This document shows positions 2,169-14,677 of a DNA stretch of 64,000 nucleotides, one piece after another; the first letter of the stretch is position 1, and each line of letters opens with the position of its first letter. The stretch is taken from positions 32,001 through 96,000 of the forward strand of contig CAZFHY010000001.1 of the NCBI GenBank assembly GCA_964519305.1. The letters run 5' to 3'. The notes under the pieces were generated by a model that saw only the letters and a list, made by a program, of their open reading frames with translations, was not told the DNA's origin and ran no database searches. The stretch comes from Candidatus Undinarchaeota archaeon. Lineage in GTDB: Archaea > SpSt-1190 > JASMDC01. Made by a program: the position numbers and the translations under genes.

Positions 2169-4982
2169 ATGGCACTTCATCGTCTGTTACGTACCATCTC
2201 AGCCATTGTCCTCGTCGCCCTGCTCCTGACACCGGGCAGCGCTATAGTCGCGGACGAGGTCGTTGAGGAGGTGGACATATCCACATTGAAGTACGCTCAG
2301 GTGGACATCACTTATGTTCTCCCGAGCCGCTACCTCGATACACTCGATGACCAGCTGCTCAACAGCAGATGCTCCCTGCTATCCTCGGTGACCGGGTGCC
2401 GTGCTTCGATCTACGGTGGCGAGGAGAAGGTAGTGTTCAACATGCTCGAGCCCAGCCCCGAGATAGGGGTCAGGGACCTCGACGTCCAAGAGGACCTCAT
2501 CAACGTCGAGTTCTACTTCAAGTACCTGCCCAAGCAATACGTGCTCGCCCAAGGACTGATGGTGCGTGAGCGAGGTATGAAGATCAGGTACCCCACCCAC
2601 ACGACCGTGCTCAACTACGTCCTGGACATGCCCCTCCTCTCGCAGTTCGCCATTTCCAGGCGGGCCGTCCCGTTCTCGGCCACGGTGGACAAGACGTCCT
2701 TCGTCATCGGTGAGACCATCCCTATCCCAAAGATCACAGAGGGCATATTCTGCATCGCCGCCCTCCTGGACGGCGACACGGTCATCGTCCGTGATTACTC
2801 GAGCACCTGTTCACCCTTCGAGCTCGGGACCACTTCGTTCATCCCCGAGGGCAGCTACGACCTATACCTCATCGCGCTCACCGGGAGCGCGACCAAGTAC
2901 AACAGTATCCGGGTGGACCTGGAAGCGTCCGATATCCCGACCTATCTGGATCTGGACAAGGACAGGTGCAACCTGGGCGAATCCTTCGTTGTGAAGGTCA
3001 CATCCTCCGAGGACCTCGACCGGTGCGAGGTGCACTTCATGGACCCCTTCGGCAACCAGGTGGAGGAGCGCACTTCGTACGATTGTGAGAACATAATCCT
3101 CGGAACGTCTCCCGCCCTGGTCCCTGGACGCTATCTCGTCAAGGCATATTCCTGGAAGGGAGAGGAGCGCGGGGCAGCTTCTATGAGCATCACCCTCGTG
3201 GGACAGGGCTACTCCTCCTCCGAGATCACCACAGACAGCAATGTGTACAACGCGGGCGACACTATCGAGGTGTACTCCGAATCCGAGGGCGACTACTGTC
3301 TGACCGAACTCTTCGACTCAGAGTACAACAAGGTCGCCGAGGCCGAATCTGTCGGATGCGAAGCCGTCGACATCCCGGCCCATGACAGTCTTGAGGCGGG
3401 CAACTACCTGATCAAGACCACCGTGAAGAAGAACGGACGCATCATCTCCGTGGCCCCCAAGGGGATCGAGATCAGACCCTGGTCGGAGCATAGCGGCACG
3501 GTCCAGTCCGACCTCTGCCAGCAGGGCAAGCTCTTCATCCTGGGCGAGCGCTTCCCCTGCATATCCACCGGCGAGGTGTGCATCCCGTCATCCTCATCCA
3601 AGCCGTTATGCCTCTGTTTCGACCAGAGCGGTAATCCGAAGGACTTTTGCGATTACGGCCACACATGCGGCCAGACCGGCTGCTCCGAAACGAAGGTGTT
3701 CAAGACGCCTTTCATCATAATCCGCGACCAGGGTAATTGCCTGGCACGCAAGGGCGACCAGACCATCTCCTGCATCGAGCTGGGCGAGATCTGTGGCGGT
3801 AACTGCGTGTGCATCAACGAGAAGGACCAGCCTCTATCTTCCTGTGTGGGTGGCGACTCCTGCACGTTCGAGGGATGCAGTCGCTCCACCATCGAGTTCG
3901 AGGTGACGTCGGTCAGTCCGGAAAGCGTGCGCGCGGACGAGCTGCGTGCCGGAAGTGCCGTTTCGTGGAAAGGACATATGCATATGGACGACCAGCTCTT
4001 CTCAGGGAGCAGGTCCCAGCTAGAGTTCACCATGCGACTGGGAACGATCACGCTCGAGGACGCTGACATCGAGGAGGAGTACGTCTCCGCCGCAGAGGGC
4101 TGGAAGGTGACAGGCACCTTCTCGGGCGACCTTGATCCCGGTAACTACGAGACGTTCCTCATGGTGAAGCGTGGCGAGGACGTCCACATCATGCGCAAGG
4201 CATTCCAGGTATGGTACCCCTTGTCCGAGAGCGCGCTGAACATCGAGCTCCGGTACGTCAATCCCGAGAAGATGTCCTATCGGGAGCTGGGTCTGGAAGG
4301 TGGAGGGATCGAACTGCACGCTCGTGTGACCAACCATGCGGGCCGTGCGCTCACCGGTAAGGACCTGCCACCCGATGTGTTCAATATGAGCCTTGAGGGT
4401 GCTGCTACGTCGCTCGGTGCGTTCTCCATGTCCGAACCGAAGTTCGACAAGAAGCTCGGTCTGTGGGTCATCAAGGGTACGTTCTACACGAAAGTGAGGA
4501 TCACCATCAGCAGGCTCGAACTTTCCATCATGCACCTGGGCAGGACAGGCGAGGCCACATCGCCCTTCGAACTGCTCGAGCACGTGCCACTCGAGATAAC
4601 CATCAGGACAACCGAACCTGGGAGCAACAAACCCATCTTCCACCTCATGGCCATCACCGGGTTCGACATCGATGTGTACGTGGACATCGAAGGCTCGTCC
4701 TCGCTGCAGAGCAAGGACTTCAATATCAAGATCGGGCACGTCGAGATCAAATCCGACTGTGGTACGGCGGACGGGGACCCCTGCATCGGTTACATAGTGG
4801 ACACCGAAAGGGGCGTGCGCATCCACCTCTCCAACATCAAGCTCTGTGAACTGGAGGACGTGTCATCCGACAGCGTCCGCAATCTCAGCATCGAGATCGA
4901 GGAGATGGGGCAGAAGGCCAGGGCCAAGACCCAATTGCGCATCGTCAGCAATCCCGGCAAGTACCAAGTGAGGTGTTCCTGA
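2169..4982 (+). CDS. Large secreted protein with Ig-like repeats and a central Cys-rich region
   Basis: Sec signal peptide; repeated ~90-aa beta modules (e.g. DKTSFVIGETI, DKDRCNLGESF, DSNVYNAGDTI); two CxxxGExC...CxC...C...C...GC repeats. Confidence 0.75.
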   Translation: MALHRLLRTISAIVLVALLLTPGSAIVADEVVEEVDISTLKYAQVDITYVLPSRYLDTLDDQLLNSRCSLLSSVTGCRASIYGGEEKVVFNMLEPSPEIGVRDLDVQEDLINVEFYFKYLPKQYVLAQGLMVRERGMKIRYPTHTTVLNYVLDMPLLSQFAISRRAVPFSATVDKTSFVIGETIPIPKITEGIFCIAALLDGDTVIVRDYSSTCSPFELGTTSFIPEGSYDLYLIALTGSATKYNSIRVDLEASDIPTYLDLDKDRCNLGESFVVKVTSSEDLDRCEVHFMDPFGNQVEERTSYDCENIILGTSPALVPGRYLVKAYSWKGEERGAASMSITLVGQGYSSSEITTDSNVYNAGDTIEVYSESEGDYCLTELFDSEYNKVAEAESVGCEAVDIPAHDSLEAGNYLIKTTVKKNGRIISVAPKGIEIRPWSEHSGTVQSDLCQQGKLFILGERFPCISTGEVCIPSSSSKPLCLCFDQSGNPKDFCDYGHTCGQTGCSETKVFKTPFIIIRDQGNCLARKGDQTISCIELGEICGGNCVCINEKDQPLSSCVGGDSCTFEGCSRSTIEFEVTSVSPESVRADELRAGSAVSWKGHMHMDDQLFSGSRSQLEFTMRLGTITLEDADIEEEYVSAAEGWKVTGTFSGDLDPGNYETFLMVKRGEDVHIMRKAFQVWYPLSESALNIELRYVNPEKMSYRELGLEGGGIELHARVTNHAGRALTGKDLPPDVFNMSLEGAATSLGAFSMSEPKFDKKLGLWVIKGTFYTKVRITISRLELSIMHLGRTGEATSPFELLEHVPLEITIRTTEPGSNKPIFHLMAITGFDIDVYVDIEGSSSLQSKDFNIKIGHVEIKSDCGTADGDPCIGYIVDTERGVRIHLSNIKLCELEDVSSDSVRNLSIEIEEMGQKARAKTQLRIVSNPGKYQVRCS

Positions 4983-6850
4983 TGGTCGAGCGCACACGAG
5001 GTCAGATGGCTCTCATCGGGCTCGCGGCGGTAGCACTGGTAGTCATCATGATCGTTTACATGATGAGCGGTAGCCGCAGGACCGAGACCGAGATCAATAT
5101 CAAGGACATCGAGTCCGCCGGCCTCAAGAGCGAGCTGGAGAAGGTGGAGAGCATCGTTACCGATATCTTCGAGGAGTCGATCCACTCCTCTGCGCTCGAG
5201 CTGGCACGTCATGGTGGGTATGCCCGCGGCAATGTACCGCCCCGCAATCTCGGGCTCACGCCGTACTGGTTCTACAAGGGGAACATCATCAACATCCCCT
5301 CGGTAGAGGTCATGACGGGCATGATGAAGGAGCGTATGGAATGGCGCATCCAGAACGATCTCAATGACCTGCGCAAGAACCTGCGGATGGACATGTTCCA
5401 CATCGGCCAGCCACGGGTCACCGTCACTCTCACCGATGTCCAGATCAACGCTGACCTGGAGCTACCTATCGAGGTAGTGCAGGGCGAGAACAAGGTCAAG
5501 ACCAAGATCGAGTTCACTCACACGGCACAACTACGTCTCAAGCTGTTACGCGACCTGGCCGAGAAGTACGTGCGTAATTACGCTGAAGTGCGTTACATGG
5601 AGCAGCAGTGGATGCACGGCGTCAACAACGATCCGCGGGTACCTAACACCCACGGTGCCGAGCCGGACGCGACGGGTCCCTGTACGACCTGCCAGGTCGT
5701 CAAGTACACGAAGCCGGGTATGACCTCAGCACTGCAGGAGCACGCTCAGCTCCACTCGTCAATGGAGCTCCAGCGTGCACGCAACCTACCTTTCTTCCAG
5801 AAGGACGCCAGTGGCGATCAGGTCAAGGACATCCAGCTCGACTTCAAGGCCAATGAGAAGGACCTCGAGTTCGAGTTCACCGCGAATCCGGGCGAGGCCT
5901 GCGAGAGCAACACCGAGGTATACCTCATCGAGCAGGGCAACACGGGCAGTGCGCCCATGGGCTCGTGCCAACATATGACCGTGACCTCCTATGACCTGTT
6001 CATGTTCCCGGTGGAGATCATCATCAGGGACCTGCTCAAGATCGGCATGGTCATGACCACAGAGACGGCCGAGACGACGACGGACCAGGACGGCAGCGCG
6101 ACAAAGAGCGTCGTCAAGCCCCTTGAGTTCCATATCGCCCTGAACTCCTACTTCACGACCGGTGATCCCAAGGCAGTGGACGGCTCTGTCAACGATCCTG
6201 AGACCGTCGATAACCTTTGTCAGGGAGCCTGCTCTATCGACATAAAGGCTACAAATGTCAACGAGGGCATGCTGTTCATCGACTCGTGCGAGTACGGGCC
6301 CGGCAACCACTTCACTGAGGCCAACGTACCCTGCGGTATCCACACCATCACGTTCAAGTCCATCGATCCCGCGGGCAAGGCCAAGTGGGTGAAGAGGGAC
6401 CCCATCACGGACAACTACCAGCTCGAGATCGAGGTCCAGGACTATGCATCGGTGAAGGGCACCATCAACATGAAGAACAAGGTGTACTGCACCCAGTCCA
6501 AGCGCGTGGAGGACAAGGGCCTCGAGACACTGGCGTACTACGAGGGCGATCCGCCTCGGACGATCAGGCTGTTCTTCTACCCCGTCAACCACAGGCTGGG
6601 AGAGATGGTGCATGCCGACATCGACGAGAACGGTGCCTACGAGGTCCCCGTTATCAATCCCGGGACATATCTGGTGCTTGCCTTCCCCACCGAGGACGCC
6701 TCACACCGCCCTACGCACAAGGTGCTGCCAAAGGGCCTGGTGATGGACATCGAGCCAGGTACTAACGACCTGAACATCGAGCTGGAGCCCATGCGCGTGG
6801 AGAAGGTCGGCGACAAGTACGTCAACGTGGTCGGAACCGAGGACTGTTAG
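4982..6850 (+). CDS. Large pilin-like protein with class III (prepilin) signal peptide and C-terminal CnaB/carboxypeptidase-regulatory-like domain
   Basis: MVERTRG|QMALIGLAAVALVVIMIVYMM fits the archaeal [KR]G|Q + hydrophobic prepilin motif; DENGAYEVPVINPGTYLVLA; TGATG overlap with upstream gene. Confidence 0.65.
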   Translation: MVERTRGQMALIGLAAVALVVIMIVYMMSGSRRTETEINIKDIESAGLKSELEKVESIVTDIFEESIHSSALELARHGGYARGNVPPRNLGLTPYWFYKGNIINIPSVEVMTGMMKERMEWRIQNDLNDLRKNLRMDMFHIGQPRVTVTLTDVQINADLELPIEVVQGENKVKTKIEFTHTAQLRLKLLRDLAEKYVRNYAEVRYMEQQWMHGVNNDPRVPNTHGAEPDATGPCTTCQVVKYTKPGMTSALQEHAQLHSSMELQRARNLPFFQKDASGDQVKDIQLDFKANEKDLEFEFTANPGEACESNTEVYLIEQGNTGSAPMGSCQHMTVTSYDLFMFPVEIIIRDLLKIGMVMTTETAETTTDQDGSATKSVVKPLEFHIALNSYFTTGDPKAVDGSVNDPETVDNLCQGACSIDIKATNVNEGMLFIDSCEYGPGNHFTEANVPCGIHTITFKSIDPAGKAKWVKRDPITDNYQLEIEVQDYASVKGTINMKNKVYCTQSKRVEDKGLETLAYYEGDPPRTIRLFFYPVNHRLGEMVHADIDENGAYEVPVINPGTYLVLAFPTEDASHRPTHKVLPKGLVMDIEPGTNDLNIELEPMRVEKVGDKYVNVVGTEDC

Positions 6851-7059: not shown

Positions 7060-8319
7060 TCACTGGCTCTGGCTCCACTGCTGGAACTGCTCCGCCCACT
7101 CGCCCTGGTTCGTAGGCTCTTCAGGCGGCGGCTCGTACGATGGCTGTTCTTCCCTCGGTTCGTTCGACCCAGTCATCATCTTCACGCGCTTGATCAGTTC
7201 CTTGATGCGCGGCATCTCCACACCGGCCAGCAGGATGACCACCTCGAACCGGTCGTAGCTGGAGATGACGGCGTTCCCCCAGCGCACGGTACCGCCGGCG
7301 CCATCATTGAGCTGGCTCCCGAGCCAGCTGATTGCCTCGTGGAGCTCGGAGACCTTGGGCGAAGTGGGTCCGGCGACGATGAGCGCCGCTGAGCGGGCAC
7401 TGGTGTACACCGCCTGGGTCGTCGTCCCCTGGAGCACTGCCATCTGGACCAGATTGGTGAGGCTCGAGCGGGCGTTCCCCTCGGCGTCCACGGGCGCTTC
7501 TGCCCGTCCCAAGCAGCACAGCACGCCGTAGTCGCTGGTCTTTGCCTCGAGGATCGTGTTCTTCAGGTCAGTGGAGTCCATGACCAGGTCCTGCTCCTGC
7601 GAGATGGGCAGGCCCGAGATGGTCAGCAGCTTGATCTGCTTGAGGATCTCCCGGTTGATCTGGTCGAAGATCTCGTTGATACCCACCCGCCCACGGACAT
7701 GGGCAGGGATGCGCTCGTAGAACCACTCGTTGTCGGCGATGATGAGCCCGTCCAGGCGGGGCAGGAGGTTCTTCATTCCCCATAGTGCGTTCTCCTCGTA
7801 CCGGCCGCTCTCGTACCCGAAGGGCAGCAGCCCGATGCCGATCTTGACGAAGTCGTTCGGGTTAACGACGTGGCGCTGGATGAACACCTCGTCGATTATG
7901 TCCGCCGCCACCGGTGAGCACCCGCAGCCGGAACCGCCGCCAAGGGAGGTGACGATAAAGCAGAAGTGGGGCATGATGCCGCGGCCAAGGGTGTTGACTG
8001 TGATGGTGTTTCGGATGAGGTCGCGGTTCTGGTTGGCCACACCCTTGCAGTACTCGGGATTGCCGCCGCACCCCTTTCCTCCGCCGATCAGGATGCGCGA
8101 CTCCTCGGGGATGTTGAGGATGTTGAGGTCGCGGATGTTGGTGTTCAGGGCCACCGAGGCGAAGTAATCGTCCACACGCAGAGTGGAGATGCCCATGGAA
8201 CGGGCGAAGGTCAGCATCTGGCTGACCACCGAGCGCTGGAACTCGGCCACGGCGTCGAGCACGCGGGTGCCCCCCTGACCCAGCCCCATTGCGAATATCT
8301 GGCTTCCTGAGACGTCCAT
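7060..8319 (-). CDS. Tubulin/FtsZ superfamily GTPase (divergent CetZ/FtsZ-like)
   Basis: GLGQGG, LNTNIRDL, GKGCGGNP, SLGGGSGCG (tubulin signature variant), LLPFGYES, ADNE, FDQIN, VMDSTDLKNTI; acidic Pro/Gln tail; start at 8319 or 8328. Confidence 0.9.
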   Translation of the reverse strand: MDVSGSQIFAMGLGQGGTRVLDAVAEFQRSVVSQMLTFARSMGISTLRVDDYFASVALNTNIRDLNILNIPEESRILIGGGKGCGGNPEYCKGVANQNRDLIRNTITVNTLGRGIMPHFCFIVTSLGGGSGCGCSPVAADIIDEVFIQRHVVNPNDFVKIGIGLLPFGYESGRYEENALWGMKNLLPRLDGLIIADNEWFYERIPAHVRGRVGINEIFDQINREILKQIKLLTISGLPISQEQDLVMDSTDLKNTILEAKTSDYGVLCCLGRAEAPVDAEGNARSSLTNLVQMAVLQGTTTQAVYTSARSAALIVAGPTSPKVSELHEAISWLGSQLNDGAGGTVRWGNAVISSYDRFEVVILLAGVEMPRIKELIKRVKMMTGSNEPREEQPSYEPPPEEPTNQGEWAEQFQQWSQSQ

Positions 8320-8337
8320 GATGCACACTTCCCTTGC

Positions 8338-9309
8338 TCAGCCGAACAGGTCCTCCTCGAGCGTCTTCTTCTTAGGCGCGGCCCGCTCGCCGAAGCGTAC
8401 GTCCTCGAGCTCGCCCATGAGGTCGGCCTCGAGACTGACGGCCTTACGCGCTTCTTGTTCGGCCCCTGCACGGACCTCCATGAAATAATTATATATCTTC
8501 TGATAACGCGGCCGGAAAGTCAGGGAGAACAGTTCATAGTCCGGTGTGGGCGCGATGAAGGGGCGCACGCCTGGGATTATGCCAGGTGGTTCCTCGGGCA
8601 TGCACACGTAGGAGAACGAGTTATCGGTGAGGGAGAAGTCGGAGGCGCACACGTTCTGGAGGATGGCCGTGTTCAGGTCCATGCCCTGGAGGCTCTCTGC
8701 GAACGACGGTACGCACAGTTCGCCGGTGAGGCCGTCCGAGGCCAGGTACTGGCGCATGCCGTACTTGCTGTTGAGGCCCCTGAGGATGTCGAGCATGTAC
8801 TGGACGAACGTGTCCATGCGCTCGAACGCCGTGTGCTGGTCGAGCGCCTTTACCTTGCTCGTCAGTCGCTCCTCCTCGAGCACGATGACCAGGTCGGCGG
8901 TCTCTTTCATGTCCACCATCGTGGAGATTAGGTGGCGCTTGGCCTGCATGGGGTACTCCTTCATGTAGGGGAGCAGGAGGACGGCGCAGAGGAAAGCGTC
9001 GGGCTGGTACTGGCGGACGCGCTCGAAAGCGTGTGCGGCCAGCGCCCCGTACTCGGTGGTGGGATTGAGCAATGCCACGCTCATGCCATCGGTCATGTCC
9101 AGGGAGTGGTCCACCCAATCCCGGACAAGCCCCATCTTGAATTCGCGCTTGCTGGTGTCGTCGGAGATCTCGATCTTGAGGCATTTATTCCGATCGAACT
9201 CCTTGAGGTCGCTGATGCTCGCCGACGCCAGTGCGAAGGGTGCGCGGTGGCGCTCAGTGTACCGCTCGATCCATGTGGCGCCGAAGGTCCCGAGCCCGAT
9301 GAGGTTCAT
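8338..9309 (-). CDS. Degenerate tubulin/FtsZ-like protein, probably GTPase-dead
   Basis: Start at 9309 (ATGA overlap); MNLIGLGTFG, AVLLLPYMKEY, ADLVIVLEEERL, AFERMD fall in FtsZ/CetZ order and spacing, but the GGGTG loop is absent. Confidence 0.6.
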   Translation of the reverse strand: MNLIGLGTFGATWIERYTERHRAPFALASASISDLKEFDRNKCLKIEISDDTSKREFKMGLVRDWVDHSLDMTDGMSVALLNPTTEYGALAAHAFERVRQYQPDAFLCAVLLLPYMKEYPMQAKRHLISTMVDMKETADLVIVLEEERLTSKVKALDQHTAFERMDTFVQYMLDILRGLNSKYGMRQYLASDGLTGELCVPSFAESLQGMDLNTAILQNVCASDFSLTDNSFSYVCMPEEPPGIIPGVRPFIAPTPDYELFSLTFRPRYQKIYNYFMEVRAGAEQEARKAVSLEADLMGELEDVRFGERAAPKKKTLEEDLFG

Positions 9310-11105
9310 AAGCCAACCCACTCCCGCATGATACGCTTCCAGATGAACTTGCGTGCATGCTCGATCAATTTGAACCTGACGGTCACGTACATGATGCCCC
9401 CGGTCACCGCGAACAGGATGAGCAGGAACAGGACCCGCTGGCGGAACCGGTTCACCTCTACCGCGCAGGTGCCGTCCTCCTGTCTGACGTTGTCGTTCAT
9501 GAGCCCCTGGAACGTACCGAGCTCCTCGCACGCCTGGGGCATGCACACGTCGTTCTCGCAGTAGAAGCCCTTGATGCACCCGCAGTCGCTGCAGCAGTAC
9601 GGCTTCTCGATATCGAGGCAGAGGGTGTCACCGCACTTGATGTCGTACGCTCGGCGAGGTGCGTCGGTGAGGGTGCCCGTGAACCTCAGCCCTTCTTTGA
9701 AGCTCATACCGTCGGGGAGAGACATGGTCACCCATTCGTCCCCCTGGGGGAGTCGGATGCGCCACTCGCCGGCGTTCTTCGTCCTGTCCATGAGGCCCGG
9801 GACGGTGAAGGTGACGTTCTGCTCCTTGACCAGCATCCCCGCGATGGGCGTGACGTCGATATCGTTGCCGTGGACCGTTCCGTTGAGAGGGGATAGGAGG
9901 GCGGGGCCCGTGGCGTTCTCCATCCGCCATTCTACCAGCGACAGCACGCCGTCGGGATTGGCGGAGAGCACGTCGGCCTCGCCGTAGGCCTTCATGTCCT
10001 CGATCTCGCGCAGACGGAGCACGGCATGGCCTGAGCCGTCGGATAACAGGCTGAGAGTGATGTTACGCCTTCTGCTCGGCGGGAAGAGCACCTCCAACCG
10101 GTGCTGGCCTCCACGGTACGCACTCCCGTCCACCTCTACGTGCATTACCGCTTCATTGTGCATGATGTACTTCAGCCCGGGGGTAGCAGGAGCGCGTGTC
10201 CGGTACGCTACCGCCTTGCGCTCGCCAGCACCGAGGCTGAGGTTGACGGATAGGACGTTACCTACACCCTGGATATACACCGGCGCCAGCGCACCACCAA
10301 GGTACTCCAGGCGCGGGTTCGTCGGCTCGTCCAGCCGGATCTTCACGGATTGACGCCCCTGGTTCACCAGTGTGAAGTTTACCTGGAAACCCTCGCCCTG
10401 GACGGCCTTTGCTGGCATCGACCGGCCCATGGACAGCTTCGGGCGTTCCAATGCCCAGGTGATGAGCGTACGAGCGATGGGGAGCTTCTCGCGGAGCACG
10501 CACAGCCTCCTCGAGCAGTTCAGGCCGGGGACAACGTGAATGCCAGGCGCCTCGACATCGAACTTGAAGATGAACCATGTGAAATCGTCGAACCGTGAGC
10601 CGTTGATCCGCAGGGCATAGGGGAAGACCTCCTTGTGGACGTCCTCCAGCGGTGCGGCGGCCGTGTACACCAGGTCGTGCCGGGCGTAGGGGCCGAAGGG
10701 CAGTTCCCGGGTGTGCAGCGCTACAAGCTCCTCCCTCATTCCTGCAGCCTCGCGTGTCAGGTCTGCGCCCATGACCGAGACGTTCATGGCCCCCAGGTCC
10801 TCGCTCAGGTGGTTAGCCAACCGGATAATGGCCTTGCGCACGACCGTGTCATTGGGGCCAAGGACCACCGTGTAGAGCACCTCGTCCACGGTCACCGTGG
10901 TGAGGTCCATCGACCATATGTCAGCGTCGTCCGCAGCAGGCTCCTCGTGGATTTCGACGGGGGCGTCCGTGACATTGGACGGGACATCGGTGGCGTTGAC
11001 CGGGAGGTCGGTGGCGTTGACAGCAGCGGTCCCGTTGTCATCCTGTGCTACTGCCAGGGACATGAGGAGGAGGGCCATCACCAGGATAATCGTAGTTCGC
11101 GCCAT
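9306..11105 (-). CDS. Cell-surface glycoprotein with C-terminal membrane anchor
   Basis: Signal peptide MARTTIILVMALLLMSLAVA, many NxT/S sequons, DUF11/CARDB-like Ig module, Cys cluster CGDTLC..CCSDCGC..CENDVC, C-terminal TM helix and basic tail. Confidence 0.75.
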   Translation of the reverse strand: MARTTIILVMALLLMSLAVAQDDNGTAAVNATDLPVNATDVPSNVTDAPVEIHEEPAADDADIWSMDLTTVTVDEVLYTVVLGPNDTVVRKAIIRLANHLSEDLGAMNVSVMGADLTREAAGMREELVALHTRELPFGPYARHDLVYTAAAPLEDVHKEVFPYALRINGSRFDDFTWFIFKFDVEAPGIHVVPGLNCSRRLCVLREKLPIARTLITWALERPKLSMGRSMPAKAVQGEGFQVNFTLVNQGRQSVKIRLDEPTNPRLEYLGGALAPVYIQGVGNVLSVNLSLGAGERKAVAYRTRAPATPGLKYIMHNEAVMHVEVDGSAYRGGQHRLEVLFPPSRRRNITLSLLSDGSGHAVLRLREIEDMKAYGEADVLSANPDGVLSLVEWRMENATGPALLSPLNGTVHGNDIDVTPIAGMLVKEQNVTFTVPGLMDRTKNAGEWRIRLPQGDEWVTMSLPDGMSFKEGLRFTGTLTDAPRRAYDIKCGDTLCLDIEKPYCCSDCGCIKGFYCENDVCMPQACEELGTFQGLMNDNVRQEDGTCAVEVNRFRQRVLFLLILFAVTGGIMYVTVRFKLIEHARKFIWKRIMREWVGL

Positions 11106-11107
11106 GA

Positions 11108-12673
11108 TCACCACCCCAGGTACCAGTAGGCCTCCTCGAACTTTTTGACGTACTCCTCGGGCGTGTGCCGCCTCAGGTTCTCCGACTCGACCACGAACTT
11201 GAAGCGGACGATACCGCCTCCTCCACCGATCCGCCATCGGACGAAGAACAGGAACGATACGAAGGCGAAAGCGAACGATACCGCCACGAAGGTGCACTCG
11301 AACCCGTAGATCTCGCACACTAGGCCCGCAGGATGGAGGGTGACCGGGAATGTCTCGTTCCCCGCCTCGAAGCCACGGTAGTAGATACGACCGATGAGGT
11401 TGCAGGCGAGCGGTTCACGGGTCGCGGGCGTGCTCACGTTGCACCGGTCTATACCGTACTCGCCAGCTCCGCAGTGTCGGTCGAGCAACGTCTCGTTCCC
11501 TCCGCAGCGAAGGAAGAGCTCATAAGGAAGACCGGGGTCAGTGAGGCTGGCGAACACGATGGTACTTGCGTTCCCCTCGATGTCCTTTGCTACTGGCCGG
11601 AACTGCTCGAAAGCGGGTGAGAACTCCCTCACCTCGATCTCCAGCCCCTCCTCCTGCTCGTCGCCGTCCGTGGAGAAGGTCACCGATCCCTCGTAGATGA
11701 TCCGGCCCTCGTACTCGTGGAGTGGCAGGCGTCCCAGGTGGAGCGGGCAAGTGATCTCGTCGAGGATGTTGGTGCAGGCCTGGTCCACCGGAAGGGTCTG
11801 ATTGACGTACGCGGTGTTGTTCCAGGTGAGGATGATCGAGATCGTGTTGTCGCGCTGGAGTATATCGTTCCACTTCTCAATGGATGTGTTTACGACCACG
11901 GGATCGTACTGGTTCACGAGCCGGGTGTAGTTGGTAAGAGTGAACAAGGGGTCCTCGGCGTACACGACCGCGAAGGGCGTCTCCATGTAATCGACGATGC
12001 GCGATCCAGTTACGATCTCAAGGCGCGCCGTGTACCTCCCTCGCTCGTCGGGCACGTCCACGCTCACCGCATGTCGGATGCTGCCCTGCATATCGCAGCT
12101 GAGGTCGATCGGTTGATGGCTGCGCGCAACGACCTCCCGGCCCGGCCCGAGCACGTACAGGGTCGTGTTGTAGCTCACACCGTACTCCGGGCGTCGGATG
12201 ACGTAGTCGATATAGAGCTGCTCTCCGGGGCCGAACACGTCCTTGCTCAAGCCAGCCTCGAGCGCGGTGTTGACGAAGAACACGGTATGGATGTTGAACG
12301 GGATGGACTCTGACACGGGGGACGTGACATCGTAGGTGAAGTAGATCGTGTGGTCACCAGGGGTGCTGCATAGCGGGGCCTTCGTCAGGATGGTGAACGC
12401 ACGCTCGACGTCCTTGCGCACCTCGAGCTTGGGCAGACCGCCCGGGTAATCGGTACCCCAGTGGTACTGGGAGTTCGTATCGTTCTTCCGGTTGGCGATG
12501 CCGTACGCGGGCTCATCGATAAGACCGCGTACCGTGACCTTGTGGACGCCCTGGTCGCCAGGGAGGAGCACGTGGCGTACGTTCTGTACGTCGACGAGGA
12601 CCTGCTCGCCCGCAGAGACGCTCGCAGCGCACAGAGCGCATACGAGAACGAGAACAAGAAGCTTGGACGGCAA
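11108..12673 (-). CDS. Secreted, C-terminally anchored Ig-repeat protein
   Basis: Signal peptide, beta-rich domains, TM helix FVAVSFAFAFVSFLFFV, short cytoplasmic tail. Confidence 0.7.
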   Translation of the reverse strand: MPSKLLVLVLVCALCAASVSAGEQVLVDVQNVRHVLLPGDQGVHKVTVRGLIDEPAYGIANRKNDTNSQYHWGTDYPGGLPKLEVRKDVERAFTILTKAPLCSTPGDHTIYFTYDVTSPVSESIPFNIHTVFFVNTALEAGLSKDVFGPGEQLYIDYVIRRPEYGVSYNTTLYVLGPGREVVARSHQPIDLSCDMQGSIRHAVSVDVPDERGRYTARLEIVTGSRIVDYMETPFAVVYAEDPLFTLTNYTRLVNQYDPVVVNTSIEKWNDILQRDNTISIILTWNNTAYVNQTLPVDQACTNILDEITCPLHLGRLPLHEYEGRIIYEGSVTFSTDGDEQEEGLEIEVREFSPAFEQFRPVAKDIEGNASTIVFASLTDPGLPYELFLRCGGNETLLDRHCGAGEYGIDRCNVSTPATREPLACNLIGRIYYRGFEAGNETFPVTLHPAGLVCEIYGFECTFVAVSFAFAFVSFLFFVRWRIGGGGGIVRFKFVVESENLRRHTPEEYVKKFEEAYWYLGW

Positions 12674-12730
12674 CCTATCACAACACCACAGCGGGTATCT
12701 TTATATCTCTTGCACGAAAGGAAGCCCCTG

Positions 12731-14677
12731 ATGGCCTCCCTGAAGCTCGACAGGAACAGGTGCACGAAGTGCGGAAAGTGCGTGGTCGCATGTCCGAACA
12801 ATGCCATCGTCATGCGTAACTTCCCTGCGTTCTGCAAGCACTGCGACCTCAAGGCCGCACCGTGCTACCAGGCCTGCCCGCTGGGCGCCATCGTGGACGT
12901 AGGTAACGGTATTCTCAAGGTGGACGTGAACCGCTGCGATCCCTACCAGTGCAAGAAGGAGTGCCAGAAGTGGTGTCAGTGGGATGGCGTGTTCGTGTTC
13001 GGCGACAAGGCCAAGAAGTGCGATCTGTGCTTCGACTACCAGAACCAGCCCAACTTCATCCCCAAGTGCATCGAGGTGTGCGACGCCAAGGCCATCACCA
13101 CCGACCTCATGCAGGAGGTCGTGCTCGACTACGCAGGATGGAGCGCCGAGTCCATTCCCCAGGAGATCATCGCAGAGGTCCTCCAGAGCTTCACCTACGG
13201 CCAGGTCGTCAAGGTGCAGGGCCAGCCGGTCCCGTACTACTACGTCAACTCGCTACCCCAGCTCACCGACTGGGCCCAGACCAAGCTCCTGGGTCTCACC
13301 ATCAAGAAGTACATCGACACCGGCAAGGCGGACCAGGACCCGTTCTCCTCGCTGATGATGATCATGCGCAAGTCCGCCCAGTGGGTGGGCACCAGCGTGG
13401 ACGAGAACATGCTAAAGGAGCTCGCCAACATCGCTCTCATGAACACGAAGGGCTACGGGCCCTTCGACGTCCTCCTCGAGGACGACCAGCTGGAGGAGTT
13501 GATGTGCATCGGCCTCGGTAAGGAGAGGCCAATGTATGTCTACCACCGCGAGTACGGGATGCTGCGGACCAACCTGTTCTTCCCCGACGAATACATGGAC
13601 TTCACGGTGGACCCACCGGAGAAGAAGTCCGGCGAGGAGGTCCTGTGGAAGATCATCGAGAAGATGATCGAGCCCATGGGGGAGCGTATCGACCGCCAGC
13701 ACCCCAGGGTCAACGCGCAGCTGCCGGACGGCTCCCGTCTCCACGCGTGCATCAAACCAATGGGATTCTCCGGACCGTCGGTGACGATCCGAAAGTTCCG
13801 GGCCGCACCGTTCTCGCCCATCGACACCATCAGGTTCAACACCATCTCTCTGGAGGCCGTGGTGTACTGCTGGATCGCAATGGAGAGCGAGATCTCGATG
13901 ATCGTGGCCGGAAACACAGGTTCCGGAAAGACCACCTCGCTCAACGCATTCTCTACGTTCATCCCTCCCGAGGAGCGCATCCTCATCCTCGAGTCAACGC
14001 CCGAAATCAATCTGCCCCACCCGCACAAGGCACGTCTGGTCACCGTCAACAACGCTGACCCGCCCATCGGTATGCAGGACATCATCGAGGACACGCTGCG
14101 TATGCGGCCCGACCGTGTGGTAGTAGGAGAGGTCCGGAGCGGCCCAGAGGCACAGGCGTTCATGAACTCGGTACTGGCAGGTCAGGCACGCGGTTCCATG
14201 TGCACGTTCCACGCACAGGACGCAGTATCTGTCGTCAAGCGTATGAAGAACCCTCCCATGAACATCTCACCTCTCGACCTGCAGGTCCTGGACCTCGTCT
14301 TCGTCCAGCGACGTATGTCGCGGGTCGAGGGCAGCAAGCGGAAGCAGATCCGTCGCGTCGTCGAGATCGCCGAGATCGACAAGCATAATATGAGCGACGA
14401 GGGCGTACCGGTCATCCATCCGATCTATCGCTACAATCCGGACACCGATGTCGTCGAGCGCGTGCACTCGGGTCTGTCCCCGCTAGAGGAGCGCATATCC
14501 AAGTACAACCTCTGTCTCGACGAGGGGCAGTTCTGGGGCGAGGTACAGGCGAGGACCAAGATGCTCAAGTACCTGATGGCCAACAACATCCGTGACATCA
14601 AGGTCTTCATGGACTACATCATCCAGTACGGTACGGATCCTGCTTTCAAGCAGAGCATAATCAACATGAACATCTGA
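12731..14677 (+). CDS. Type IV pilus/type II secretion assembly ATPase (TadA/VirB11/ArlI family) with N-terminal 4x[4Fe-4S] domain
   Basis: Walker A GNTGSGKTT, LILESTPEI, LRMRPDRVVVGEVR, TFHA; N-terminal 16 Cys in four ferredoxin motifs; ATG 12731 follows TATA near 12700. Confidence 0.9.
   Translation: MASLKLDRNRCTKCGKCVVACPNNAIVMRNFPAFCKHCDLKAAPCYQACPLGAIVDVGNGILKVDVNRCDPYQCKKECQKWCQWDGVFVFGDKAKKCDLCFDYQNQPNFIPKCIEVCDAKAITTDLMQEVVLDYAGWSAESIPQEIIAEVLQSFTYGQVVKVQGQPVPYYYVNSLPQLTDWAQTKLLGLTIKKYIDTGKADQDPFSSLMMIMRKSAQWVGTSVDENMLKELANIALMNTKGYGPFDVLLEDDQLEELMCIGLGKERPMYVYHREYGMLRTNLFFPDEYMDFTVDPPEKKSGEEVLWKIIEKMIEPMGERIDRQHPRVNAQLPDGSRLHACIKPMGFSGPSVTIRKFRAAPFSPIDTIRFNTISLEAVVYCWIAMESEISMIVAGNTGSGKTTSLNAFSTFIPPEERILILESTPEINLPHPHKARLVTVNNADPPIGMQDIIEDTLRMRPDRVVVGEVRSGPEAQAFMNSVLAGQARGSMCTFHAQDAVSVVKRMKNPPMNISPLDLQVLDLVFVQRRMSRVEGSKRKQIRRVVEIAEIDKHNMSDEGVPVIHPIYRYNPDTDVVERVHSGLSPLEERISKYNLCLDEGQFWGEVQARTKMLKYLMANNIRDIKVFMDYIIQYGTDPAFKQSIINMNI

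Follow-up and report, generated by a model that had tools for sequence, protein, structure and literature searches.

We analyzed a stretch of 64,000 nucleotides (nt) of DNA from a Candidatus Undinarchaeota archaeon (contig CAZFHY010000001.1, positions 32,001-96,000; GCA_964519305.1), which we call the window and whose own coordinates are used below. Four closely spaced genes run along its minus strand from 12673 to 7060, encoding in order a protein of 521 amino acids (aa), a protein of ~599 aa, and two further proteins that we designate B and A. Protein A (419 aa; 7060..8319, minus strand) is a divergent CetZ-like GTPase of the tubulin superfamily, with its ATG at 8319, its stop codon at 7062-7060 and an in-frame GTG at 8328. 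Protein B (323 aa; 8338..9309, minus strand) resembles a degenerate protein of the tubulin/FtsZ fold; its ATG overlaps the stop codon of the ~599-aa gene as ATGA, and its stop codon lies 18 nt from the start of A. A scan of the locus for consensus promoters and terminators found nothing exceeding shuffle expectation. A first-pass annotation had described A and B as a tandem tubulin-like pair, in which an intact GTPase is joined by a degenerate partner, possibly in an obligate heteropolymer.

Protein A is a CetZ-like GTPase outside canonical CetZ and FtsZ

Protein A is a tubulin-superfamily GTPase that is CetZ-like without being a canonical CetZ or FtsZ. It passed the Pfam thresholds for Tubulin PF00091 (61.6 bits; cut-off 33) and CetZ_C PF21011 (45.3 bits; cut-off 21.6), and scored 69.3 bits, below the cut-off of 295.2, against the NCBIfam FtsZ equivalog TIGR00065. 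Its top sequence matches in the PDB were 4b46 (4.7e-17) and 4b45 (3.1e-16), the CetZ1 and CetZ2 proteins of Haloferax volcanii. An AlphaFold2 model built from a 22-row alignment (predicted local distance difference test score, pLDDT, 84; predicted template modeling score, pTM, 0.84) had the two-domain tubulin/FtsZ fold, and Foldseek matched it best to CetZ1 4b46 (E 1.8e-26, TMt 0.87). The motifs GLGQGG (T1), GKGCGGNP (T3), GGGSGCG (T4), LPFGYE (T5) and VMDSTD (T7) were in register with those of 21 relatives. Relative to canonical CetZ, helix H1 carries an insertion of ~16-20 residues, modeled as a long H1 that spans residues 14-41, and the C-terminal tail is acidic and proline-rich and ends in a short predicted helix. 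The open reading frame (ORF) and all of the motifs that the first-pass annotation had listed for it, including the variant T4 and T7, the insertion and the acidic tail, are present in the translation and the alignment. Comparison with the ortholog in a congener gave a ratio of nonsynonymous to synonymous substitution rates (dN/dS) of 0.068.

We placed A in a quick maximum-likelihood tree of 52 tubulin-family rows, from which B and three weak ORFs were left out. A grouped as sister to L004, a paralog encoded on contig C15 of the same genome (29% identity), and this grouping had a support of 99 in the Shimodaira-Hasegawa-like approximate likelihood ratio test (SH-aLRT). The pair fell outside the starred group of 23 rows to which canonical CetZ and the tandem paralogs of CetZ belong, and its join to that group had a weak support of 74; A also stood apart from the FtsZ rows. 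Because A and L004 are placed outside canonical CetZ, A is, to judge from its sequence, a non-canonical and lineage-specific CetZ-like GTPase. Of the 17 phylum genomes, two had A-type sequences, namely that of the window and that of its congener; the remaining 15 gave FtsZ-level matches to A only, with best E values from 1.3e-10 to 4.9e-6, and an index of 5.8 billion proteins searched with A held nothing beyond A's own cluster.

The L004 gene (G000:C15:21023-24090 region) overlaps the end of an upstream gene for a 214-aa hydrophobic protein and is directly followed by one for a 425-aa membrane-like protein; inspection of the ORF listing by eye made no B-like ORF evident beside it. The third divergent tubulin-like gene of the genome, L006 (C8:71502-72785, plus strand; 427 aa), sits on a very long branch. 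In its product T1 reads GLGQCG, T4 is intact (GGGTGSG), the stretch from T1 to T3 is lengthened by a large insertion and the tail is EMEFFSGG; the gene is followed by three others with signal-peptide-like starts.

Protein B is a conserved gene product with degraded GTPase motifs

B and its congener ortholog are 93% identical (dS 0.34), and the dN/dS of 0.10 between them ruled out that B is a pseudogene. A partial metagenomic relative, P0004 (208 aa, 63% identical), keeps the C-terminal half, including the final EE[DE]LFG. As to where the protein begins, a 413-aa ORF from 9579 was rejected as the true B; the opening 90 codons of this ORF overlap with the gene upstream and show no conservation in the congener. 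The start that the first-pass annotation had placed at 9309, inside this longer ORF, is the one that the sequence indicates, because of the ATGA overlap, because the congener has a GTG start codon at the equivalent position, preceded by GGAGGGAG, and because similarity between the window and the congener resumes exactly at the first codon of B, the inserted congener DNA upstream of it being unrelated.

B matched no family in Pfam (E up to 1) or NCBIfam (E up to 0.01), and PDB sequences searched with it, as a single sequence and as a profile, gave nothing relevant. A word-index search returned two matches (94% and 63% identical), and HMMER run over 1.84 billion representatives returned four, of which two were B-type. 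The other two, P0008 and P0009, are repeat proteins and were judged spurious on reading. Scans of metagenome and genome contigs found only sequences 93% identical to B, and a hidden Markov model (HMM) of B found no paralog among the 9,644 ORFs of its own genome. B-type and A-type proteins were thus found in one genus, together with the one partial metagenomic B, a range for which the proposed term of an archaeal tubulin subfamily is too wide.

Several landmarks of the superfamily are retained in B. A remnant of T1 is seen in GLGTFG (within IGLGTFG, residues 4-10), and both T5, LPYMKEYP (with LLLPYMKE at 111-118), and H7, TAFERMD (with AFERMD at 161-166), are recognizable. The S6/T6 segment, DLVIVLEEERL (139-149), is altered, with E where FtsZ has N-D, giving EEE at T6. 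T4 is lost, NPTTEYG replacing GGGTGTG, and T7 is deleted, an 8-residue gap lying opposite the FtsZ loop in the profile alignment. The first-pass annotation had reported these same retained motifs along with the helical segment and EEDLFG of the C-terminus, all of which are present, and it had also described B as lacking the glycine-rich T4 and T7, which agrees with the alignment. On the strength of these motifs, B appears to be a pseudo-GTPase at both functional faces.

After its globular part B continues into a predicted helical segment (~267-302), a basic linker and the terminal TLEEDLFG, within which EE[DE]LFG is conserved. This ending is an acidic-hydrophobic peptide like those that end the CetZ and FtsZ proteins we collected; A and L004 are without such a terminal peptide. 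Archaeal FtsZ tails bind SepF (PMC8178401), and two SepF-like loci are found in the window's genome.

A and B form a conserved pair and may bind each other

A and B are a conserved adjacent pair, with purifying selection on both. B stands beside A in both species that have them, that of the window and the congener. The adjacency is also found on three more contigs, whose B, like that of the congener, is 93% identical to the B of the window. The congener has ~1.2 kb of inserted DNA between the upstream membrane-protein gene and B, yet B is still directly upstream of A; the insertion cuts the two genes off from those upstream, and therefore B and A are the conserved unit.

The congener insertion carries antisense nucleotidyltransferase-like and HEPN-like ORFs, so labeled from motifs in the ORF list. 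Pairs of nucleotidyltransferase-like and HEPN-like ORFs flank B and A in the congener (L024 4792-5806 and 8253-9265) and are toxin-antitoxin-like by motif only.

Prediction of an A-B complex gave a score of 0.40 (0.40, 0.41 and 0.01 in the individual runs), and the best of three controls scored 0.00; the runs agreed in at least 73% of contacts. In the calibration of this score, which holds only roughly here because the prediction used alignments of our own, 58 of 80 solved complexes attained the complex mark, as did 2 of 110 mismatched pairs; seven of the 80 solved complexes, and both of the mismatches that passed, attained it with scores of 0.60 or less. The interface prediction that the first-pass annotation had suggested therefore set the pair apart from its controls, but within the weak band of scores and with one of three runs at 0.01. 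Two other considerations also count against a functional link between A and B: tubulin-family pairs can score through their likeness to solved filaments, and the adjacency is known from two closely related species (dS about 0.33), which leaves little time to test linkage. Taken as a whole, the predictions give weak support to the binding of A and B.

A tubulin-like B that is independent of A, for example as an adaptor for the tails of the upstream membrane proteins or as a regulator of another FtsZ/CetZ paralog, would explain why the start of B is coupled translationally to the upstream membrane-protein gene (ATGA) in a tightly packed group of four genes, and why its profile scores better against FtsZ (E 2.8e-4) than against the clade of A (E 0.53); five other tubulin-family genes in the genome would offer possible targets. 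We nevertheless consider this explanation unlikely, if not lightly set aside, since the toxin-antitoxin-like insertion of the congener splits B from the membrane-protein genes and leaves it directly upstream of A, and since the predicted complex with A scored 0.40 when none of the three controls exceeded 0.00.

Protein B probably has the tubulin/FtsZ fold

Profile-profile alignment, language-model features, fold searches and matches to FtsZ genes are four kinds of evidence that are each weak and that agree with one another, and because of this agreement we conclude that B probably has the tubulin/FtsZ fold. In hhalign, B aligned with a 20-sequence FtsZ/CetZ alignment at E 4.6e-5 (B 104-239 to FtsZ 148-290), compared with E 0.25 for the reversed B profile and E 0.015 for the best of 30 column shuffles, every one of which fell short of the real score by more than two orders of magnitude. 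A relaxed alignment was colinear over B 1-313. Against a 22-sequence CetZ-like alignment the match (E 8.6e-4) covered B 77-175 and set NPTTEYG exactly over the GGGSGCG of A. In the ESM atlas, the top match to B scored 0.92 with 201 of 256 features in common, and the ten best named matches were all Tubulin clusters.

For the fold searches, B was modeled with AlphaFold2 from an alignment of three sequences, and FtsZ and CetZ rows were kept out of this alignment because adding them would have imposed the fold under test. All of the rows that Foldseek listed for the model were CetZ, FtsZ or tubulin, as the first-pass annotation had expected; the best was the CetZ structure 3zid (E 1.3e-3, TMq 0.41, 279 columns). 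In a VIA search of 48,161 chains the top 10 matches all belonged to the tubulin superfamily (Z 8.5-7.2, 167-231 residues aligned), gamma-tubulin 3cb2_A (Z 7.5) was among the top matches, and the superfamily made up 16 of the 50 rows listed; Rossmann-like folds appeared from rank 11, with ~100 residues aligned. ESMFold2, as run in the complex prediction, gave B a pLDDT of ~77 (at least 76). Among the 41 genomes searched, the only matches to B outside its genus were two weak ones (E 1.5e-3 and 4.8e-3), both to genes read as FtsZ from their glycine-loop motifs, and in the scan of the 9,644 ORFs of its own genome two FtsZ genes were among the top 8 sub-threshold matches.

Several results count against this assignment. 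The fold searches rest on a poor AlphaFold2 model, which the three-sequence alignment of B gave at a mean pLDDT of 38.8. For VIA, Z scores of 7-8.5 are common background by the tool's own statement, so that the weight of this search lies in the consistency and coverage of its matches and not in their scores. The hhalign probabilities were 68.5% for the FtsZ/CetZ set and 23.5% for the CetZ-like set. Nothing specific linked the profile of B to the clade of A (E 0.53), and BLASTP of B against A found no similarity. Of the first-pass claim that B adopts a tubulin fold, the concordance of hhalign, ESM, Foldseek and VIA is what has held up, set against the low confidence of the AlphaFold2 model and the lack of any family-model match.

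These reservations bear on the possibility that B is not tubulin-like at all, and is instead an unrelated, lineage-specific alpha/beta (Rossmann-like) protein with a coincidental likeness of motifs. Such a protein would account for the absence of any match in Pfam, NCBIfam or PDB sequences, for the pLDDT of 38.8, for the hhalign probabilities below 70%, and for the many Rossmann-like folds in the VIA list at Z 5-7. It is distinctly unlikely in our view, because four separate kinds of evidence name one and the same superfamily, because the alignments are colinear over both domains where the Rossmann-like matches extend over only ~100 residues, and because all 30 shuffles scored worse than the real profile by more than two orders of magnitude.

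Compared with individual groups, the B profile was closest to FtsZ (E 2.8e-4) and to one CetZ_C-bearing group (E 5.1e-4); its matches to canonical CetZ (E 0.11) and to a set of T7-deleted CetZ partners described below (E 0.065) were weak and colinear. The possibility that B is a recent duplicate of A was rejected on the E value of 0.53 to A's clade and the lack of BLASTP similarity. The tubulin/FtsZ fold of B is moderately supported, and B would then be an old and highly diverged paralog and a pseudo-GTPase.

A model for the action of B on filaments of A

It is established that each GTPase site in a filament of the tubulin family is completed by the T7 loop of the adjoining subunit (PMC13394414). 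In A the nucleotide pocket is complete and the two acidic residues of T7 are retained, all under strong constraint, which argues that A contacts A and therefore that B is present at less than one copy per A. We propose that A would be a working, polymerizing CetZ-like GTPase, and that B would be produced from the same transcript just ahead of A. B would bind A through one longitudinal face that has survived and, being present in fewer copies than A, would serve as an end cap, a nucleator or an anchor. As B would neither hydrolyze GTP nor trigger hydrolysis in its neighbor, it could stabilize or seed one end of the filament, and its tail, consisting of the linker and an EEDLFG of the FtsZ/CetZ style, might link the filament to a further partner, perhaps at the membrane. 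This function of B as a sub-stoichiometric cap, nucleator or anchor of A filaments is the explanation that we tentatively prefer, although we would rate its chances at somewhat under even; the binding of B to A, the ratio below one-to-one and the use of the tail as an anchor are steps that we infer.

The obligate heteropolymer envisaged in the first-pass annotation was not established, and an alternating (ABAB) polymer or stable heterodimer of A and B, like those of alpha/beta-tubulin, BtubA/B and AtubA/B, seems to us improbable: the two genes are adjacent, co-directional and 18 nt apart with their adjacency conserved, the A-B prediction (0.40 against 0.00 in controls) offers weak support, and in known tubulin heterodimers the genes are likewise adjacent and one interface is dead (PMC13394414), but those heterodimers keep the GTP-binding signature in both partners where B has NPTTEYG at T4 and EEE at T6, and a strictly alternating filament would be without a competent active site, because the T7 of A would face the degenerate pocket of B and the GTP of A would face the missing T7, so that no hydrolysis would be possible even though A retains its T7 acidic residues and pocket motifs at a dN/dS of 0.068.

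Neighboring genes and genome setting

The first of the four genes (11108..12673, minus strand) encodes the 521-aa protein, with a predicted signal peptide, an ectodomain, a C-terminal transmembrane (TM) helix and a cytoplasmic tail of ~45 residues. Its congener ortholog is 89% identical. Pfam gave merely a sub-threshold MG2 match, no NCBIfam family was found, and a search of its own genome found no paralog. Its stop codon is 2 nt from the ATG of the second gene (9306..11105, minus strand), which encodes the ~599-aa protein with a predicted signal peptide, a large sequon-rich ectodomain, a C-terminal TM helix and a short basic cytoplasmic tail. The congener ortholog of this second gene is 82% identical and conserved in position. 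The ~599-aa protein had no match in Pfam or NCBIfam, searches for paralogs in its own genome yielded short cysteine-rich stretches and nothing else, and the ESM atlas gave leads at the 0.76 level only. A hydropathy scan of both proteins showed a hydrophobic, signal-like N-terminus, a region rich in N-x-S/T sequons and a single C-terminal TM-like helix.

A more specific version of our model, in which B is a prokaryotic pseudo-tubulin that caps or nucleates A filaments and couples them by its terminal peptide to the cytoplasmic tails of both surface glycoproteins, is attractive and highly doubtful. If it were true, it would connect cytoskeleton, membrane and cell surface in an archaeon whose genome is unusually large for a DPANN phylum of otherwise tiny genomes. 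The gene context, namely the predicted co-transcription, in the window, with genes for two membrane-anchored surface proteins and the adjoining pilus-like cluster, is suggestive only.

That cluster, a type IV pilus-like set of a T2SSE ATPase and two T2SSF proteins, diverges from 12461. Its T2SSE-family ATPase (12461-14677, plus strand) is fused at the N-terminus to a ferredoxin-type 4Fe-4S domain (Fer4, residues ~96-116), which is an uncommon combination, and has a 46%-identical paralog elsewhere on contig C1. CetZ1 has been linked to the placement of the motility machinery in Haloferax (PMC13644373; 10.1101/2024.05.02.592137).

On the other side, and convergent with A, lie genes for a 937-aa protein (2169-4982, plus strand) and a 625-aa protein (4973-6850, plus strand), which are one copy of a two-gene cassette. 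Each has at least 11 further paralogs in its own genome (28-37% identity by BLASTP), and by their coordinates these pair up into at least 10 more adjacent cassettes, often near MarR/DUF7343-type regulators. The N-terminus of the 625-aa protein consists of RGQ followed by a hydrophobic stretch, and presumably resembles an archaeal class III (pilin-type) signal peptide.

The window's genome measures 3.63 Mb with ~60% GC and is 99.8% complete and 4.3% contaminated, and the other 15 species genomes of the phylum measure 0.6-1.2 Mb. A large-genome lineage within a phylum of reduced DPANN genomes is unusual, and could reflect misplacement or a chimeric bin.

Comparison with known systems

The closest known relatives of A are CetZ1 and CetZ2 (4b46, 4b45), which are its best matches in both sequence and structure. 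A has the Tubulin GTPase and CetZ_C domains, a GQGG-type T1 and, at T7, VMDSTD where CetZ has VVDSSE. A differs from CetZ in being only 25-31% identical, in lying outside the canonical clade, in its H1 insertion and in being without the canonical CetZ terminal peptide, and A-type proteins were confined to one genus in our searches. CetZ-like proteins have been described as an assortment of groups, with quasi-tandem copies in some archaea (Santana-Molina et al., PMC9871819); A, judged by its sequence, is a new and narrowly distributed member of this CetZ-like radiation.

Gamma-tubulin is a tubulin-fold protein that nucleates or caps filament ends, is not a lattice subunit and binds GTP. The role at filament ends that we propose for B would be alike by functional analogy only, as gamma-tubulin is a bona fide GTP-binding tubulin.

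We also considered whether B is an FtsZl1 protein and rejected this, as B did not match Pfam Tubulin_2 (PF13809), which we take to be the model covering FtsZl1, and as no vWA domain was present among the 14 neighboring proteins scanned. B does resemble FtsZl1 and FtsZl2 in being divergent and in lying beside membrane-protein genes. According to Makarova and Koonin (2010; PMC2875224), FtsZl1 and FtsZl2 are divergent members of the FtsZ-tubulin superfamily found beside membrane-associated proteins, and FtsZl1 has a conserved nucleotide-binding core and is linked to vWA-domain genes.

A nearer parallel to the B-A arrangement came from other archaea. At six of the 11 canonical-CetZ loci that we fetched from their genomes (L025, L028, L030, L032, L033 and L035), the CetZ gene is directly followed by a gene for a ~335-aa Tubulin-domain paralog. 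These partners score 92-112 bits against Tubulin, have no CetZ_C match, and have intact T1 and T4 and a ~17-residue deletion over T7. A third CetZ_C-bearing paralog lies ~3 kb from the pair in those six genomes. As in the window, an intact GTPase is in tandem with a shorter, T7-deleted partner, and these partners share with B a terminal acidic-hydrophobic peptide. They differ from B in that they keep T1 and a GGGTGTG T4 and pass Pfam Tubulin, and in gene order, CetZ being first and the partner second. The profile of B, with E 0.065 to these partners and E 2.8e-4 to FtsZ, also does not place it significantly nearer to them than to FtsZ. A full-text literature search, with supplements outside its reach, found no account of a T4- and T7-less partner of a CetZ-like protein, and likewise no description of a T7-deleted paralog beside canonical CetZ, of which the supplementary genome-context figures of PMC9871819 may show related tandems. 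Because T7-deleted partners adjoin canonical CetZ in other archaea, the combination of an active subunit with a crippled tandem paralog may be a recurrent design of archaeal tubulin-like cytoskeletons; B would then be an independent instance of it, and an extreme one. Annotation by sequence models misses such partners entirely when, as with B, they match neither Pfam nor NCBIfam.

The pairs alpha/beta-tubulin, BtubA/B and Asgard AtubA/B are comparable to A and B in consisting of adjacent paralogous genes in one operon, in which the T7 of one partner is unable to trigger hydrolysis (PMC13394414). The partners in these pairs both keep the GTP-binding signature and are clearly alike; B has lost T4 and the asparagine position of T6, its T7 is deleted and not substituted, and it shows no pairwise similarity to A. 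By these sequence features B is more degenerate than the dead-interface partners of any of the three. Tubulin paralog pairs with one dead interface underlie microtubules, and the origin of such a division of labor is an open evolutionary question. B would represent a far more extreme case, in which a partner that has lost the phosphate loop and T7 is nevertheless held under selection as strong as that on the active GTPase, and in which a system of two soluble proteins makes the proposal readily testable in vitro.

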